Positions 1 through 7,143 of a DNA stretch of 7,344 nucleotides are shown here, one piece after another. The first letter of the stretch is position 1, and each line of letters begins with the position of its first letter. Source of the stretch: a virus (Duplodnaviria > Heunggongvirae > Uroviricota > Caudoviricetes). The DNA lies in IMG/VR virus record IMGVR_UViG_2602041568_000002; one strand, 5' to 3'. A program made the position numbers and the translations under genes. Under the pieces are notes generated by a model that worked only from the letters and a program-made list of their open reading frames with translations, was not told the origin of the DNA and did not search any database.

Positions 1-281
1 CTGACCCGCGACGACCATTTTGCGCAGGTCACCTTTATCTGCCGCCACTCATAAGGCGGCGTCCACAGAAAGGCTTTCCAGCCCCCGTGCTCTTCCAGAA
101 ACGACTCCAGTACCGTGGCCTCCTCACGGGGGACAGAAAGCGTCACGCTGTACGTTTTCAGGTTGGCATTCAGCCCGGCAGGCGCTCGCTGGGAATAGCC
201 ATCACCAAAGCGCACCTTTCTTACAGAAGGGGCCGAAGCCACATCCATACCGGGTTTCACTTTCCAGCGGAAGGTTTTCAT
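1..281 (-). CDS. M: Tail tip assembly protein gpM, partial: start codon at 281..279, C-terminal ~16 codons lie beyond the window start
   Basis: Reverse-complement translation from the ATG at 281..279 reads MKTFRWKVKPGMDVAS..., which I recognise as the N-terminus of lambda gpM. It sits immediately downstream of H as in lambda, and its ATG overlaps the H stop (ATGA). Absent from the ORF track only because the frame runs off the window edge without a stop. Confidence 0.88.
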   Translation of the reverse strand, partial: MKTFRWKVKPGMDVASAPSVRKVRFGDGYSQRAPAGLNANLKTYSVTLSVPREEATVLESFLEEHGGWKAFLWTPPYEWRQIKVTCAKWSSRV

Positions 282-2839
282 CGTCCACCTCCGGAGAACA
301 GGCCACCATCACGCATCTGTGTCTGAATTTCATCACGGGCACCCTTGCGGGCCATGTCATACACTGCCTTCATCATCTGTGGACCTGGCAGACCATTCGT
401 ACCGTCGTTCTGAATCACCACGTGATTGTTCTGATTAAAATTAATGCCTTCAGCCCGCCGCATCTGCGCCGGACTTCCGGCACCGCCCACATAACCACCT
501 TCCGCATAGCCCCGCATCAGGCGGTACAGGTTGCCCACGCCAATCCGGCTGGTTGCCTCCTTCGTGAAGACGAATTCACCGCGGTGAACAATTCCCGCTG
601 GCTCATATTTGCCGCCGGTTCCCGTAAATCCTCCGGTCGCAAAATGGAATTTCGCCGCAGCGGCCTGAATGGCTGTACCGCCTGACGCGGATGCGCCGCC
701 ACCAACAGCCCCGCCAATGGCGCTGCCGATACTCCCGACAATCCCCACCATTGCCTGCTTAAGCAGAATTTCTGTCATCATGGACAGCACGGAACGGGTG
801 AAGCTGCGCCAGTTCTGCTCACTGCCGGTCAGCATCGCCGCCATATTCTGCGCAATACCATCAAAGGTCTGCGCGGCTGCACTTTTAACCTGCGACATAC
901 TGTCCGTGGCGCTCTCTTCCCACTCACACCAGCCGGACTTCAGGCCTGCCATCCAGTTCCCGCGAAGCTGGTCTTCAGCCGCCCAGGTCTTTTTCTGCTC
1001 TGACATGACGTTATTCAGCGCCAGCGGATTATCGCCATACTGTTCCTTCAGGCGCTGTTCCGTGGCTTCCCGTTCTGCCTGCCGGTCAGTCACCCCCCGG
1101 CTTTTCGCATCAATGGCGGCCCGTTTTGCCCGTTGCTGCTGTGCGAATTTATCCGCCTGCTGCGCCAGCGCGTTCAGGCGCTCCTGATACGTAACCTTGT
1201 CGCCAAGTGCAGCCAGCTGGCGTTTGTACTCCAGCGTCTCATCTTTATGCGCCAGCAGGGATTTCTCCTGTGCGGATAGCTGGCGACGTTGTGCCGCCTC
1301 CTCCAGTACCGCGAACTGATTTTCAGCCTTCCACAAATCCCGGCGCTGCTGGCTGATTTTCTCATTCGCTCCGGCATGCTTCTCCAGCGTCCGGAGTTCT
1401 GCCTGAAGCGTCAGCAGGGCAGCATGAGCACTGTCTTCCTGACGATCGCCCGCAGACACTTTCACGCCGGACTGTTTCGGCTTTTTCAGCGTCGCTTCAT
1501 AGTCCTTTTTCGCCGCCGCCATCAGCGTGTTGTAATCTGCCTGCAGAATTTTCCCGTCCTTCAGTGCCTTGTTCAGTTCTTCCTGACGGGCGGTATATTT
1601 CTCCAGCGGCGTCTGCAGGCGTTCATAAGCCTTCTGCGCCTCTTCGGTATATTTCAGCCGTGACGCTTCGGTATCGCTCTGCTGCTGCGCATTTTTGTCC
1701 TGTTGAGTCTGCTGCTCAGCCTTCTTTCGGGCGGCTTCAAGCGCAAGACGGGCCTTTTCACGATCATCCCAGTAACGCGCCCGCGCTTCATCGTTAACAA
1801 AATAATCATCCTTGCGCAGATTCCAGATGTCGTCTGCTTTCTTAAACGCAGCCTCTGCCTTAATCAGCATCTCCTGCGCGGTATCAGGACGACCAATATC
1901 CAGCACCGCATCCCACATGGATTTGAAGGCCCGCGCTGTCCTGTCTGCCCAGGTCTCCAGCGTGCCCATGTTCTCTTTCAGGCGGCGGGTCTGGTCATCA
2001 AACCCTTTCGTTGCGGCCTCGTTCGCCGCCTGCAATGCCCCGGCTTCATCGCCGGAACGCTGCAACTGAGCAACATACGCAATCTGCTCCGCCGTCACGT
2101 TATGGAACTGGCGTGCCATCGCTGTCAGCCCTGACGTCGGGTCTGTGGTCAGCTTCCCGAAGGCTTCAGCGACCTTGTCCACCTCCACGCCGGATGCAGA
2201 GGAGAAACGCGCCACACTCTGGCTGATGGATGCAATCTGAGCCTCACCGCTTACTCCCGCCTTAACCAGTGCGCTGAGTGACTCGCTGGTCTGGTTAAAC
2301 GTCAGCCCTGCCGCCTGCCCGGCTCTGGACAGGACCAGCATGCGATCTGCCGTCAGACCCGACTGATTGCCGGAAAGGACCAGCGTTTTGTTGAAATCGG
2401 ACAGGGTTGAGTTGCCCTGATACCAGGCATACGCCAGCGCACCGGTCGCCACCGCCAGCGAGGTGGCCCCGACCATCGGCAGGGTGATCGCACCGGCAAG
2501 CCCCCTGAACATGGGGATCATCCCGCCGAAGGAGTCCTTAACCTGACCACCCTGTTGCAGCAGGATCAGCCACGGACTTTGCCCGCCTGCAAGCTGCGTG
2601 GCCACGTCGGTGAACTGTGCAGGCAGCATACGCATGGCGGCTTTATACTGCCCGACGGAAATCCCCGCTTTCTGTGCAGCCAGCGCCTGTCGGCTCAGCG
2701 ACTGTTCAACGACTGCCGCTGTTTTTTTCGCATCACTTTCCGTACCGGAAAAATGACGCCTGACTCTGGCCATCTGCTCGTCAAATCTGGCCGCATCCAG
2801 ACTTAAATCAACGACCAGATCGCCTACCGGTTCAGCCAT
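278..2839 (-). CDS. H: Tail tape measure protein gpH (853 aa)
   Basis: 853-aa ORF starting MAEPVGDLVVDLSLDAARFDEQ, the same length as lambda gpH and recognisably the same protein along its whole length. It has a long Ala/Gln/Lys/Glu/Arg-rich central region (typical coiled-coil tape measure), a Gly-rich hydrophobic segment and a conserved C-terminus ...DEIQTQMRDGGLFSGGGR. AGGAGGAG Shine-Dalgarno ~8 nt upstream of the ATG at 2839. Confidence 0.97.
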   Translation of the reverse strand: MAEPVGDLVVDLSLDAARFDEQMARVRRHFSGTESDAKKTAAVVEQSLSRQALAAQKAGISVGQYKAAMRMLPAQFTDVATQLAGGQSPWLILLQQGGQVKDSFGGMIPMFRGLAGAITLPMVGATSLAVATGALAYAWYQGNSTLSDFNKTLVLSGNQSGLTADRMLVLSRAGQAAGLTFNQTSESLSALVKAGVSGEAQIASISQSVARFSSASGVEVDKVAEAFGKLTTDPTSGLTAMARQFHNVTAEQIAYVAQLQRSGDEAGALQAANEAATKGFDDQTRRLKENMGTLETWADRTARAFKSMWDAVLDIGRPDTAQEMLIKAEAAFKKADDIWNLRKDDYFVNDEARARYWDDREKARLALEAARKKAEQQTQQDKNAQQQSDTEASRLKYTEEAQKAYERLQTPLEKYTARQEELNKALKDGKILQADYNTLMAAAKKDYEATLKKPKQSGVKVSAGDRQEDSAHAALLTLQAELRTLEKHAGANEKISQQRRDLWKAENQFAVLEEAAQRRQLSAQEKSLLAHKDETLEYKRQLAALGDKVTYQERLNALAQQADKFAQQQRAKRAAIDAKSRGVTDRQAEREATEQRLKEQYGDNPLALNNVMSEQKKTWAAEDQLRGNWMAGLKSGWCEWEESATDSMSQVKSAAAQTFDGIAQNMAAMLTGSEQNWRSFTRSVLSMMTEILLKQAMVGIVGSIGSAIGGAVGGGASASGGTAIQAAAAKFHFATGGFTGTGGKYEPAGIVHRGEFVFTKEATSRIGVGNLYRLMRGYAEGGYVGGAGSPAQMRRAEGINFNQNNHVVIQNDGTNGLPGPQMMKAVYDMARKGARDEIQTQMRDGGLFSGGGR

Positions 2840-3266
2840 ACCGGACTCCTCCTGCGATCCCTTCTGATACTGTCATCAGCATTACGTCATCCTCCGTCAT
2901 GTCCGCCACATCCGGGGAAGCGGGGATAACTTCATTCCCGTCCGGGCCAAAGCGGACACCTCCGGCAAGCCCTGCCGCTTTCTGCATCAGCACATCATCT
3001 TCAGGCTCTTCGTCAGCCTCGCGCCGGTTCAGCAGACTGAAATCCAGCGGATGCATATCCGGATCGCTGAAAAACAGGCTGAGCACGGTGTACGTCAGCC
3101 CGGAAAAGTGCATATCCAGCAGAACATCATGAAAATAATGGGTACTGTAAAAGCGGTGCCAGTCGGCATACTCCGTGGATGACATCCCGGCAAGCATGGC
3201 ACGCCAGTCGGGTCTCCCCATCTCACGCGCCAGTTTCAGGGCAAAACTCAGCTCACCGTCGAACAC
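2832..3266 (-). CDS. T: T segment of the tail assembly chaperone gpG-T; no independent start, expressed only as a -1 frameshift fusion with G (fusion spans 2832..3670)
   Basis: 144-codon open frame (..FDGELSFALKLAREMGRPDWRAMLAGMSSTEYADWHRF...) recognised as lambda gpT. Its first codon is GTG, directly 3' of the slippery heptamer in the -1 frame relative to G. The frame ends with TGA at 2834..2832, overlapping the H start by 8 nt. Confidence 0.9.
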   Translation of the reverse strand: MFDGELSFALKLAREMGRPDWRAMLAGMSSTEYADWHRFYSTHYFHDVLLDMHFSGLTYTVLSLFFSDPDMHPLDFSLLNRREADEEPEDDVLMQKAAGLAGGVRFGPDGNEVIPASPDVADMTEDDVMLMTVSEGIAGGVRYG

Positions 3267-3670
3267 TTTCCCGCAGAAACAGGCTCTGCGGGCCCGGCGT
3301 CCTCTGTCTGTTCAGGGGCATTATTCACCACAAACTCATACATACCAGACAGCCGGTACACCACGTTTTCAGCATGAGAAATTGCCTCCGTGGGCCAGGT
3401 GGTAAGCACTTCCTGCTCAATCTGTTTAACGGCTTCATTCATGGACGGCATCTGCGTCTTCTGCGGATGGTTATGCCACAGGGACATCGCCACCAGAAAC
3501 GCGCCGGTTCTGATGGCGTCTTCCACAGTAAACTTCCGGTTGCTGTCTGACTCCGCCTGTTCTGCCTGCCGTTTCATCAGGGCGAGATGCTCAATGCGCT
3601 GCAGGGCTGACAGTTCAGAAAGCGTGACGGTCACACCGTTATGTTCAAATGATTCGGTTTTCAGGAACAT
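3248..3670 (-). CDS. G: Tail assembly chaperone gpG (140 aa)
   Basis: ORF MFLKTESFEHNGVTVTLSELSALQRIEHLALMKRQAEQ...PVSAGKCSTVS recognised as lambda gpG at the correct length. GGAGAG Shine-Dalgarno in the 15-nt V-G spacer. The slippery site lies 6 codons before its stop. Confidence 0.95.
   Translation of the reverse strand: MFLKTESFEHNGVTVTLSELSALQRIEHLALMKRQAEQAESDSNRKFTVEDAIRTGAFLVAMSLWHNHPQKTQMPSMNEAVKQIEQEVLTTWPTEAISHAENVVYRLSGMYEFVVNNAPEQTEDAGPAEPVSAGKCSTVS
3266..3272 (-). other. Programmed -1 ribosomal frameshift slippery heptamer G GGA AAG (G-T recoding site)
   Basis: Plus strand reads ctttccc at 3266..3272, so the minus strand reads GGGAAAG. In the G frame it is GCG-GGA-AAG (A-G-K, residues 133-135 of G). 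After a -1 slip the next codon is GTG at 3266..3264, the first codon of the T frame. Position and sequence match the classical lambda G/G-T site. Confidence 0.88.
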
Positions 3671-3685
3671 CGCTGACTCTCCGGA

Positions 3686-4426
3686 TTAACTGGCGGTGAC
3701 GGTAATTTCTGCAACCGCAGCAAACTCACCATTACCGGATACAACCGGAATGTTGACCTTGCCTGCAGCAACGCCGTTCACGGTGATGGTCATACCACTG
3801 ACCGACACGGTGGCTTTTGTTTTATCCGCAGACACCGCACGAAAGCTCTTGTCGGTTACGCCCTCCGGCTGGAAGGCCACGGTCAGCGTGGTGCTCTGCC
3901 CTTTCACCACCGAGGTGCTGGCAGGCGTCACGGTCATGCCGGTTGCCGCTGTTACCGTGCTGCGATCTTCTGCCATCGACGGACGTCCCACATTGGTGAC
4001 TTTCACCGTGCGGGTGATCACTTCCTTCGCCGTCACCGCCTTACCGATACTGCTGACCCAGCCACGGAACACATCGACCGTGCCGTTCGGGAAGCGGATT
4101 TTATAGGCACGGGTATCGCCTTCATTAAACCACGCCAGCAGCGCCTGCTGCCCCTGCTCTCCGGGCATCCACGCCAGCGTGAAGCTGGTATCTCCGGCAG
4201 ATTTCTGCCCCTGCCCGGTCGCAGTCCAGTCTGCATCTTCATCATCGAGATAGCTGTCGTCATAGGACTCAGCGGTCAGTTCGCCGGGCGTCAGGTCTTT
4301 AACTTTTGCCAGACGCGACCAGTCAACGTCTGAAAGCGGATTCGCATAAGGGTCACCGCTCCCCTTATAAACCCACAGGGTGGTCCCGGCACCTTTCACC
4401 GGCATTACAGGATTTGGTACAGGCAT
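3686..4426 (-). CDS. V: Major tail tube protein gpV (246 aa), with C-terminal Ig-like domain
   Basis: Track ORF 3686..4456 contains [43 protein letters not shown]..., recognised as lambda gpV. I place the start at the internal ATG at 4426 (246 aa, as in lambda) because it is preceded by GAGGA about 4 nt upstream; the track's ATG at 4456 would overlap the end of U and has no comparable ribosome-binding site. Confidence 0.93.
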
Positions 4427-4433
4427 AGCGTCC

Positions 4434-4829
4434 TCACATTTCATAGGTAATGACATAAGTCAGATCGGCTGAACTCCACAGGCCCGCATCATCGTCGCGC
4501 CGGTAGTCATAGCCGCTGGCCACCATACTGGTGATCAAATCTGACAGTGCCGGGATATCACTCATCACCGGATAAATCCGGGACTCCATCCACGCATCCA
4601 GCTCTGAATCCGGCACCTGAGCAGGCAGGAAAACTTCGATATGCAGCTCCGCCTGCCAGGTATCGCTGTCCAGCTCTTCGCCCGTGTATTCAGCGCCGGT
4701 GAGATAAACGGCAACTGCCGGAAAATCCTCTTCGTCAAAAACAACGGGGCGACCATCAAACAGCGTCGCCCCGTGTTCATGCTGCTCGAGTGCATCCAGC
4801 ACTGCGGCACGGAGTTCAGTATGTTTCAT
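4434..4829 (-). CDS. U: Tail terminator protein gpU (131 aa)
   Basis: [31 protein letters not shown]...[10 protein letters not shown] recognised as lambda gpU at the correct length. Its ATG (4829..4827) overlaps the Z stop (4828..4826) as ATGA. Confidence 0.95.
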
Positions 4830-5404
4830 CGCTTTATTACCATCCTCAGTTGATGCTGCAGCGCATAGCCCAGCTCTTTCGGAAGACGCTCACGCCGTAT
4901 CCGCTCAATATTCTGTTTAAACGCCGTGGTCAGCGGCACCGCCATCGGGATTTTCACCACATCAATGGGGTAACGGTTTTTCCCGGCCACACGCTGCATG
5001 ACATGCCAGCGGCCATTTTTCAGTTGCTGAATAAACGCGCCGGGAATACGACGGTTTCCCACCACAAGCACGCTGCCGCCACCTTTCAGGGCTGAACGCT
5101 GCCCCTTTTTACGACGCCTGCGTCGGGACAGGACAATCCGCGCGTTACCCAGCTTTATTACGGGCAAATCCCCCCGGTTAACCTTGATTCTGGCCTGCGG
5201 ATTTTTGACCGTGGCCCTTTTCAGCCTGGCCCTTTCCTTTACCAGTTTCCGGCGTACCTTTGTCTCACGGGCAACCTGTGACGCCGACTGCGATATCGCG
5301 GATGAAGCAACGCGGTTAATGGCCATTGCGGCGGCACCGGGCACCGCCGTTCTGCTGATACGGCTGAGGTTTTCAACGGCCTGCTCAAGACCTTTTATGG
5401 CCAT
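4826..5404 (-). CDS. Z: Tail completion protein gpZ (192 aa)
   Basis: ORF MAIKGLEQAVENLSRISRTAVPGAAAMAINRVASSAISQ... recognised as lambda gpZ; length and position between FII and U match lambda. Confidence 0.95.
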   Translation of the reverse strand: MAIKGLEQAVENLSRISRTAVPGAAAMAINRVASSAISQSASQVARETKVRRKLVKERARLKRATVKNPQARIKVNRGDLPVIKLGNARIVLSRRRRRKKGQRSALKGGGSVLVVGNRRIPGAFIQQLKNGRWHVMQRVAGKNRYPIDVVKIPMAVPLTTAFKQNIERIRRERLPKELGYALQHQLRMVIKR

Positions 5405-5780: not shown

Positions 5781-6176
5781 TTATTGCATTCTGGCCAGGC
5801 CGCGTTCTGTCATTTCGGCTGCCACACCGGCAGAGACACGGAACGCCGTTCCCGGCAGCACAAATGCCACAGTGTCATCCCGCGTGGCGTGAAGTGCATC
5901 AGTATGCAGCGTCACCAGTGCCACAACCGTGACCAGATCAGCCGTATCAGTCACGGTATCCGGCTGCGCTGATACAACCTCATTTTCATGTCCGGTCAGC
6001 GCATTTTCCGGGCTGACAGATGTGTCCTGACCAGCAGCGTCATCCGTGTCATCAAGCTCCTCTTCCAGCTCTGCCACACGGAGTGCCAGTTCTTCTTTCG
6101 TCCCCGTCAGGCTGACATCACGGTTCAGTTGCTCACCCAGCACCTGAAGACGGGCAATCAGTTCATCTTTCGTCAT
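5781..6176 (-). CDS. FI: DNA-packaging / head assembly accessory protein gpFI (131 aa here)
   Basis: Track ORF 5781..6215 contains MTKDELIARLQVLGEQLNRDVSLTGTKEELALRVAELEEELDD...AFRVSAGVAAEMTERGLARMQ, recognised as lambda gpFI. I place the start at the ATG at 6176, preceded by GGAGGAG about 5 nt upstream. The track's upstream ATG (6215) lies inside the intergenic hairpin stem and has no ribosome-binding site. Confidence 0.9.
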   Translation of the reverse strand: MTKDELIARLQVLGEQLNRDVSLTGTKEELALRVAELEEELDDTDDAAGQDTSVSPENALTGHENEVVSAQPDTVTDTADLVTVVALVTLHTDALHATRDDTVAFVLPGTAFRVSAGVAAEMTERGLARMQ

Positions 6177-7096: not shown

Positions 7097-7143
7097 NNNN
7101 NNNNNNNNNNNNNNNNNNNNNNNNNNNNNNNNNNNNNNNNNNN
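7097..7143. other. Run of 47 N (assembly or scaffold gap, or masked bases)
   Basis: Direct observation: 47 consecutive n characters. Confidence 1.

Follow-up and report, generated by a model that had tools for sequence, protein, structure and literature searches.

The tail tape measure protein of phage lambda, gpH (NP_040595; PDB 8IYK and 9E7M), is an 853-aa protein encoded in the gene order G-T-H-M. Three copies of its C-terminal helix make up a coiled coil that gpI holds in place, and residues 818 to 849 are resolved together with gpI in both structures (PMC10721106, PMC12617516). The trans-envelope channel is formed by gpH*, not by the cleaved fragment gpHC (PMC12617516). Lambdoid phages are known to exchange short diverged fragments by relaxed homologous recombination, and whole modules are swapped less often than small pieces of genes (De Paepe et al. 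2014, PMC3945230).

The window analyzed here is a 7,344-nt stretch of a Caudoviricetes virus (IMG/VR record IMGVR_UViG_2602041568_000002) that carries G, T (with the GGGAAAG slippery site), H, and M in the same order as lambda. Two of these genes frame the analysis:

278 to 2839, minus strand: gene H, an ORF for the 853-aa tail tape measure protein, ortholog of lambda gpH
1 to 281, minus strand: 5' part of gene M, a lambda-like right-hand flank by identity to phages (lambda M, 98.9%; 2B8, 92%; VT1, 77%)

The window H aligns with lambda H (NC_001416) without gaps over all 853 codons, at 95.9% nucleotide identity, with 105 nucleotide differences and 27 amino acid differences in total. Two Pfam domains score above the gathering threshold, TMP_2 (PF06791) at residues 54 to 256 (E = 1e-69) and Tape_meas_lam_C (PF09718) at residues 627 to 701 (E = 3e-20), and chain H of PDB 8IYK is a full-length match. 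By domain content, collinearity, and position, the window H belongs to the lambda-family tail tape measure proteins. A plus-strand ORF at positions 20 to 685, antisense to H, lacks support.

A preliminary description of this DNA had proposed that the differences from lambda gpH cluster in a block at about residues 780 to 823, with agreeing flanks. Pairwise alignment with lambda H confirmed this: the peptide and DNA strings quoted for the block are present, positions 371 to 502 are exactly codons 780 to 823, the segment is not identical to lambda, and the substitutions are not evenly spread. The divergence was delimited in two ways:

371 to 505, minus strand: divergent patch, or recombinant cassette, codons ~779 to 823 (maximum chi-square interval)
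365 to 533, minus strand: full tract of raised divergence from lambda, gene nucleotides 2307 to 2475 (informative-site table)

The patch was defined by a maximum chi-square scan of the nucleotide differences, unsupervised and with two breakpoints, which returned gene nucleotides 2335 to 2469 with a chi-square of 507; permutations reached at most 32 (P = 5e-43). These 135 nt hold 56 of the 105 nucleotide differences from lambda H (58.5% identity), and 19 of the 27 amino acid differences fall among the 44 positions of residues 780 to 823 (binomial P = 5e-19); lambda has TGGYVGTPGSMADSRSQASGTFE...QIGPAAL where the window has EGGYVGGAGSPAQMRRAEGINFN...LPGPQMM. The full tract, which takes in synonymous differences within the conserved codons 769 to 779, differs at 62 of 169 nt (63% identity), whereas the flanks are 98 to 100% identical to lambda, an abrupt change beyond chance. 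Outside the patch, nucleotide identity to lambda H is 98%, and residues 824 to 853, including most of the gpI-bound helix, are identical. No other part of the 7.3-kb window diverges as strongly from lambda (25 to 29 differences per 100 nt in the patch versus at most 11 elsewhere). Two frameshifts that compensate each other, or an error in sequencing or assembly, could also give a run of so many differing residues, and nothing else favors such an artefact; it is extremely improbable given that no more than 132 of 180 nt match when gaps are made cheap and that hundreds of complete genomes, independent of one another, contain the 169-nt sequence unchanged. Frameshifting in particular was rejected because the alignment contains no indels and the other reading frames of lambda do not yield the window peptide.

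The same segment had also been described as locally AT-rich. There is indeed an AT-rich core of ~25 nt, encoding INFNQNN, but the GC content of positions 371 to 502 (0.538, versus a gene mean of 0.585 ± 0.039) ranks at the 15th percentile among 132-nt windows of the gene, other portions of which are equally AT-rich. AT-richness as a signal of foreign DNA was therefore discarded, being in the normal range for gene H. A regulatory or RNA element embedded in the AT-rich core was rejected as well: no sigma-70-like promoter or intrinsic terminator was found at positions 200 to 800, and no Rfam family was detected anywhere in the window.

The patch and its flanks have distinct ancestries. Between the window and lambda, dS is 1.26 to 1.37 in the patch versus 0.067 in the rest of H, and the patch groups with 2B8, PhiR63_1, and VT1-Sakai, whereas the flanks group with lambda. 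The comparison with other lineages gave patch identities of 100% to E. coli LR-24, 99.4% to PhiR63_1, 98.8% to 2B8, and 92.3% to VT1-Sakai; the H flanks are just 78 to 87% identical to VT1-Sakai (87 to 92% directly beside the patch). The H genes of PhiR63_1 (PV340573), 2B8 (LR595859), and the LR-24 prophage (NZ_AP027494) carry the window patch allele. That of LR-24 differs from the window H by 4 nt in all, PhiR63_1 has the variants L823 and A840, and 2B8 has a more diverged backbone (93 to 97%) with indels in the middle of H. Conversely, ten H genes whose backbones are 97.6 to 100% identical fall into three deep classes of patch (lambda/434, phage 21, and window type) at 58 to 84% identity, and 63 of the 80 sites that differ between the H genes of PhiR63_1 and PhiR30_1 lie in the patch. 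Congruence of the patch alleles with backbone clades is contradicted by these comparisons.

These observations bear on two further explanations. Rapid change in place within one lineage, through local hypermutation or relaxed constraint and with no exchange, would fit a region that is intrinsically variable across the family; it is nonetheless very improbable, as relaxed protein constraint cannot yield a 20-fold synonymous excess, one and the same allele is found on different backbones (that of 2B8 and, for block A, defined below, that of VT1-Sakai), and different alleles occur on near-identical backbones, a phylogenetic incongruence that refutes it. Even less credible is a diversity-generating retroelement (DGR), in which a reverse transcriptase rewrites the variable region from a template repeat. 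In its size (~130 nt) and its location close to the 3' end of a tail gene, the patch is similar to the variable regions of DGRs, but neither the window nor the 19.5-kb LR-24 prophage locus contains a second copy of the patch, substitutions affect all four bases, with A accounting for only 9 to 12 of 56, and the alleles form a few discrete classes, not a continuum. For the DNA examined, a DGR variable region was rejected for want of a template repeat and of adenine bias. The mosaic exchange proposed in the preliminary description is thus supported, and the patch is best read (probability of about 0.8) as one of several alleles of an old cassette polymorphism of gpHC, brought onto a lambda-like backbone of H by homologous recombination over a short tract.

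The C-terminal part of H was divided as follows:

485 to 640, minus strand: conserved core, residues 734 to 785 (FATGGFTGTGGKYEPAGIVHRGEFVFTKEATSRIGVGNLYRLMRGYAxGGYVG), from conservation in homologs
434 to 502, minus strand: variable block A, residues 780 to 802 (EGGYVGGAGSPAQMRRAEGINFN), from allele classes
401 to 433, minus strand: conserved island between blocks A and B, residues 803 to 813 (QNNHVVIQNDG), from low column entropy
371 to 400, minus strand: variable block B, residues 814 to 823 (TNGLPGPQMM), with four main alleles
293 to 388, minus strand: C-terminal helix, residues 818 to 849, from a match to the 32-residue chain 9E7M_Ha

Block A falls into three main allele classes (window, lambda, and phage 21 types) in 61 clean sequences, and the block B alleles reassort with it. 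With residues 824 to 853 taken as block C, 15 A/B/C combinations occur among the 61 sequences, a qualitative count and not a set of frequencies, the protein search having given mostly partial fragments biased to the query allele. Block A DNA is ~98% identical between the window and VT1-Sakai, and the patch allele of phage 21 is a lambda/window hybrid, as is the phage 21-type block A itself (TGGYVGGTGSPAQMRRSEGIRFE). The H gene of phage 434 combines the lambda block A with QIGPQAL and a differing C-terminal helix (VVTGQM). Phages 21, mEp332, and ev017, which represent the third allele, and phage 434 have H genes of like architecture with backbones 98% identical to that of the window.

Lambda had been taken as the norm and the window as the exception; this framing did not survive, as lambda, 21, and 434 themselves differ at the patch. 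In 20,395 records of 5426 complete E. coli genomes, the window-type patch (≥99%) was found in 625 records and the lambda type in 1455, and the third class is present in phage 21 and its relatives; several ancient alleles are accordingly at intermediate frequency. With up to 7 patch copies per genome and such record counts, exchange partners are plentiful. The patch is therefore a common multi-allelic polymorphism, not a peculiarity of the window.

The position of the patch matches that of a linker in the cleaved fragment gpHC that is hypervariable throughout the family and lies between the conserved core and the gpI-bound helix. Among 29 distant tape measure proteins, core identity is 72 to 76% and linker identity 17 to 24%, with a linker length of 37 to 47; the linker region of these homologs is low-complexity and indel-rich, and the island has as its counterpart in them a short hydrophobic strand-like motif. 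Among close homologs, the core is invariant. The window H matches 9E7M_Ha at E = 3e-11, which predicts binding to gpI. Block B overlaps the start of this helix, where it changes I818P, A821Q, A822M, and L823M from lambda to window. The gpI protein is essentially invariant across the patch alleles, and no covariation with the patch was seen: its C-terminal domain is invariant save for a 4-residue spot that does not track the patch allele. In-frame deletions of 16 to 18 aa occur in block A of prophage copies; such copies may be defective and are therefore no proof that block A is dispensable. An AlphaFold2 monomer prediction for gpHC, made from a shallow alignment, had a mean pLDDT of 37.7; it was uninformative and was not used. 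The dN/dS of the patch is 0.25 to 0.39, 4 to 5 times that of the rest of H; purifying selection is relaxed yet still present.

In the proposed scenario, the cassette would be a weakly constrained linker between the core and the helix held by gpI at the tail tip. Because this linker would tolerate substitutions and indels, lineages could have diverged there to ~60% nucleotide identity while the flanks remained nearly unchanged. Codons 734 to 779 and 824 to 853 are near-identical among the alleles, so that homology is present on both sides of the patch, and the core is probably the left-hand anchor for exchanges. The conserved flanks and the island would supply homology for crossover by Red-beta or Rad52-like recombinases of phages or by RecA of the host, which would explain why whole blocks (A, B, and C) are shuffled among genomes. 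Gene conversion among lambdoid phages and prophages would have placed the cassette on the lambda-like H, the presumed direction of transfer. The window carries no recombinase gene, and catalysis by Red-beta, Rad52-like proteins, or RecA is suggested by analogy (PMC3945230). Like the mosaics described by De Paepe et al. (2014, PMC3945230), the patch is a short segment of distinct ancestry with homologous flanks and >90% identity to otherwise diverged phages or prophages, and its size is within the range reported there, although the tract of ~135 to 170 nt is shorter than the median of ~400 to 500 bp. Unlike those mosaics, the H locus has undergone exchange repeatedly and among several alleles and is not the product of one event. 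The patch is otherwise an ordinary lambdoid intragenic mosaic that is already in databases.

Scandella and Arber reportedly described classical pel-bypass H mutations in 1976, at positions that the accessible text does not map. No experimentally selected H mutations in residues 780 to 823 were found in the accessible literature, which gives A304V and region 300 to 400. The ManYZ-bypass determinants of lambda gpH lie at residues ~300 to 400 (A304V), and the bypass and SNIPE-escape mutations map there in lambda and to residues 100 to 150 in Bas14 (PMC13190303). Phages carrying any of the three patch alleles belong to one ManYZ-dependent, SNIPE-sensitive tape-measure clade, a comparison of two traits drawn from the text of that paper and not from per-phage data (PMC13190303). 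An effect of the swap on host range or injection, suggested earlier from the ejection role of the C-terminal region, consequently finds no support; moreover, the patch lies in the linker of cleaved gpHC and not in channel-forming gpH* (PMC12617516). The patch alleles would then be neutrally interchangeable.

However, the changes that block B makes in the first residues of the gpI-bound helix speak against neutral interchangeability, and deep alleles at intermediate frequency with tightly trimmed exchange tracts are also expected under balancing or diversifying selection. The alleles might be kept by such selection since gpHC is recognized by something variable; candidates are proteins by which prophages exclude superinfecting phages, host factors of the periplasm or inner membrane, and defence systems. 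A swap would then alter which hosts or lysogens can be infected. At least three ancient allele classes with dS near saturation, at high frequency on near-identical backbones, are in keeping with this idea, as are exchange tracts trimmed to the variable blocks, the raised dN/dS of the patch, and the status of tape measure proteins as known targets of exclusion and defence, e.g., of SNIPE, which associates with the lambda protein (PMC13190303). We nevertheless consider selection of this kind unlikely: dN/dS stays below 1, the three alleles do not differ in the ManYZ and SNIPE traits, the known bypass and escape mutations lie elsewhere, gpHC is cleaved off, and relaxed constraint accounts for a low-complexity, indel-rich linker in distant homologs. 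More speculative still is the notion that the linker is a balanced polymorphism whose exposed flexible part is recognized on leaving the tail tip by a prophage or host factor, for instance a protein that excludes superinfecting phages, a protease of the periplasm, or a defence associated with the membrane; if so, cassette swapping would offer an escape during injection that does not depend on ManYZ usage.

The practical value of these findings is mostly negative, in that the patch should not be taken as a host-range determinant without experiments. They also mark gpH residues ~786 to 823 as a permissive linker between conserved recombination anchors, which could serve engineering, through insertion of tags or peptides into gpHC, and could guide the choice of sites for studying the role of the cleaved fragment. 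For the lambdoid phages, the patch is a clean example of fine-scale (30- to 170-nt) block shuffling within an essential structural gene.

The window is late-gene DNA from a lambda-like phage or prophage and carries D (part), E, FI, FII, Z, U, V, G, T, H, and M (part) on the minus strand. Among complete E. coli genomes, its nearest relative is a prophage of strain LR-24, which is 99.2% identical over the whole window and whose H gene, coding for the tape measure protein gpH, is only 4 nt apart from that of the window. The window H and lambda H (NC_001416) align without gaps at 95.9% nucleotide identity.

Features of gene H and of the G/T overlap
278-2839, minus strand: gene H, 853 aa, the length of lambda gpH
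gpH residues 54-256: Pfam domain match, TMP_2
gpH residues 627-701: Pfam domain match, Tape_meas_lam_C
gpH residues 780-802: variable block A
gpH residues 803-813: conserved island, QNNHVVIxNDG
gpH residues 814-823: variable block B
gpH residues 824-853: variable block C
3266-3272, minus strand: conserved slippery heptamer GGGAAAG in the G/T overlap, for the programmed -1 frameshift to the G-T tail assembly chaperone fusion

At gpH residue 638 (window 926-928; GWCEWEE), the window and LR-24 encode Cys, and lambda and PhiR63_1 encode Ser; this Cys is unusual in that the rest of the window gpH is cysteine-free. At the D/E gene junction, a 47-N run (window 7097-7143) replaces about 233 nt and cuts short the D and E ORFs as they appear here. 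The interval that takes up 7344 nt in the window is 7530 nt long in E. coli prophages and reference phages; the run probably reflects masking or else a gap in the scaffold.

The preliminary description placed a block of clustered divergence from lambda at 371-502, which corresponds exactly to codons 780-823; the peptide and DNA strings that it quoted are both found there. Alignment with lambda H confirmed that this segment differs from lambda and that substitutions are clustered rather than evenly spread: 19 of the 27 amino acid differences fall within these 44 residues (P = 5e-19), and 62 of the 105 nucleotide differences fall within gene nt 2307-2475. A maximum chi-square scan for two breakpoints, run unsupervised, chose gene nt 2335-2469 (window 371-505), with 56 differences in 135 nt (chi2 507; top value in 200 permutations, 32), and nowhere in the whole window is divergence from lambda greater than in this patch. 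The local AT-richness invoked as a further signal did not hold up: at 371-502, GC content is 0.538 versus a gene mean of 0.585 +/- 0.039, which ranks this stretch at the 15th percentile among 132-nt segments of H, and comparable AT content occurs elsewhere in the gene.

Three independent lines of evidence essentially show that the patch arose by recombination, as the proposal of a mosaic exchange had anticipated. First, dS between the window and lambda is 1.26 to 1.37 in the patch versus 0.067 in the other 768 codons of H, an approximately 20-fold excess of silent change that rules out selection acting on the protein, whether relaxed or positive, as the cause. Second, the phylogenetic signal is incongruent: the window patch is 99.4% identical to that of PhiR63_1, 98.8% to 2B8, and 92.3% to the Stx1 prophage VT1-Sakai, and only 63% to lambda over the 169-nt tract, whereas in the flanks the window is 98 to 100% identical to lambda and VT1-Sakai falls to 78 to 87%. 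Third, PhiR63_1 and PhiR30_1 provide a reciprocal case, with 63 of the 80 sites that differ between their H genes located in the patch and only 17 across the other ~2400 nt.

Other candidate origins were rejected. Compensating frameshifts are at odds with an alignment that contains no indels, a cheap-gap alignment that pairs only 132 of 180 nt, and a window peptide that is not produced by lambda's other frames. For a diversity-generating retroelement, neither the window nor the 19.5 kb searched in the LR-24 prophage contains a template repeat, and the substitutions in the patch are not adenine-specific. A sequencing or assembly artifact is contradicted by the presence of the same 169 nt in hundreds of independent complete genomes. 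No embedded regulatory signal came to light either: searches found no sigma-70-like promoter or intrinsic terminator in window 200-800, and no Rfam RNA family anywhere in the window.

The V, G, and T stretch (window ~2845-4340, ~1500 nt) has a single difference from lambda versus 1 to 6% in E, FI, FII, Z, U, and H, so that the window is mosaic at a larger scale as well, with a very recent lambda-like V-G-T segment. Window 5945-6044 (FI) and window 4745-4844 (5' end of U) differ from lambda by 11 and 10 per 100 nt, respectively, and may be further short mosaic patches.

The framing of the window as an exception to a lambda norm had to be abandoned, given that three deep patch classes exist on near-identical backbones. 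Ten H genes that are 97.6 to 100% identical over their first 2246 nt hold all three, with between-class patch identity of 58 to 84% at the nucleotide level.

Patch classes
Window type: window, LR-24, PhiR63_1
Lambda type: lambda, PhiR30_1, 434 (in block A)
Phage 21 type: 21, mEp332, PhiR29_1, ev017

The allele of phage 21 is in its turn a hybrid, lambda-like across nt 2307-2355 and then window-like, and the window H combines a lambda-like backbone and lambda C block with A and B blocks of the window type. The blocks form 15 different combinations in 61 clean C-terminal sequences taken from a large protein collection, counts that are qualitative because the sample is skewed toward the query allele; such variety requires repeated crossovers inside about 200 nt. 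Across 5426 complete genomes of E. coli, 625 records have the window-type patch at ≥99% identity and 2296 genomes have it at ≥80%, and 1455 records have the lambda patch at ≥99%; with up to 7 copies per genome, recombination partners are everywhere. In MW057783.1, "Campylobacter phage CJLB-4," H matches the window as lambda does (96.1%) and its patch is 100% identical to lambda's; this H is probably lambda DNA contamination or a mislabeled record.

Cryo-EM and cryo-ET studies place the patch within the protein (PMC12617516, PMC10721106; PDB 8IYK, 9E7M). gpH is cut in a glycine-rich region around residues 690-710 into gpH*, the N-terminal product that fills the tail tube and makes the trans-envelope channel, and gpHC, a C-terminal fragment of ~14 kDa. 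Residues ~690-817 have no resolved structure; the structures resolve gpHC only at residues 818-849, where three helices form a coiled coil that the gpI trimer holds in the tail tip. Some 38 residues of the patch therefore fall at the end of the unresolved stretch, and the other ~6 open the gpI-bound helix. Confidence in an AlphaFold2 monomer model (pLDDT 37.7) was below a usable level. An exhaustive search with the C-terminal region recovered 5016 representatives at E ≤ 1e-3. In an alignment of 29 distant full-length tape measure proteins, identity is 72 to 76% in the core at 734-785 (GGYTGxGGKYEPAGIVHRGEFVFTKEATxRIGVxNLYxLMRGYAxGGxVG) and 17 to 24% at 786-823, a G/S/A/N/Q-rich linker of 37 to 47 residues followed by an amphipathic terminal helix ending in RPGGLI. 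The patch is, by this conservation profile, a family-wide hypervariable linker. The higher dN/dS in the patch (0.25 to 0.39 versus 0.07 elsewhere in H) agrees with weak constraint. Two E. coli prophage fragments, P0038 and P0045, have in-frame block A deletions of 18 and 16 residues (window ~446-502 equivalent), which also agree with weak constraint, with the caveat that the carrier prophage copies may be defective. The P0045 deletion sits between two AEG repeats (YAEGG...RRAEGI), short direct repeats that suggest slippage or recombination as its origin.

The suggestion that the patch affects host range or injection found no support: known ManYZ determinants lie elsewhere in H, and three patch types share one stated phenotype. 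In lambda H, the known determinant of ManYZ independence is A304V, and it is at residues 300-400 that PhiR68.2, a naturally occurring exception, differs (PMC13190303). The phages in that panel include lambda, PhiR26.1, and PhiR11.1 with lambda-type patches, PhiR29.1 and PhiR49.1 with 21-type patches, and PhiR63.1 with a window-type patch; the text of the study describes this tape-measure clade, save PhiR68.2, as needing ManYZ and being highly SNIPE-sensitive, a statement made for the clade and not per phage (PMC13190303). Covariation of gpI with the patch allele was sought and not seen, its C-terminal domain being invariant save for a 4-residue spot. This spot, at about gpI residues 161-164 and within the resolved part of that domain, reads RIQT, RTQT, TATS, or EYRA (gene I of the sequences L001, L002, L003, L004, L005, and L011; outside the window), and the RTQT variant accompanies window-type patches in 2B8 and LR-24 and also occurs in 434, which has a lambda-type block A.

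Balancing selection on the patch alleles would also leave ancient alleles at intermediate frequency and exchange tracts trimmed to fit them; under this reading, which we consider improbable, some factor might recognize gpHC as it leaves the tail tip. In the most likely mechanism, lambda-family tape measure lineages diverged most in the unconstrained linker, and crossover would use the tens of nucleotides of near-identity offered by the conserved flanking sequence and by the island that separates block A from block B, homology on which RecA or a phage Rad52-like recombinase (Red-beta) depends. Lambdoid phages and defective prophages frequently undergo such relaxed homologous recombination, with small fragments of genes swapped more often than whole modules (PMC3945230). 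We infer the recombinase responsible, which way the segment was transferred, and that the alleles are equivalent in function. The patch is an unexceptional lambdoid mosaic, abundant in databases, that lies in a permissive linker.
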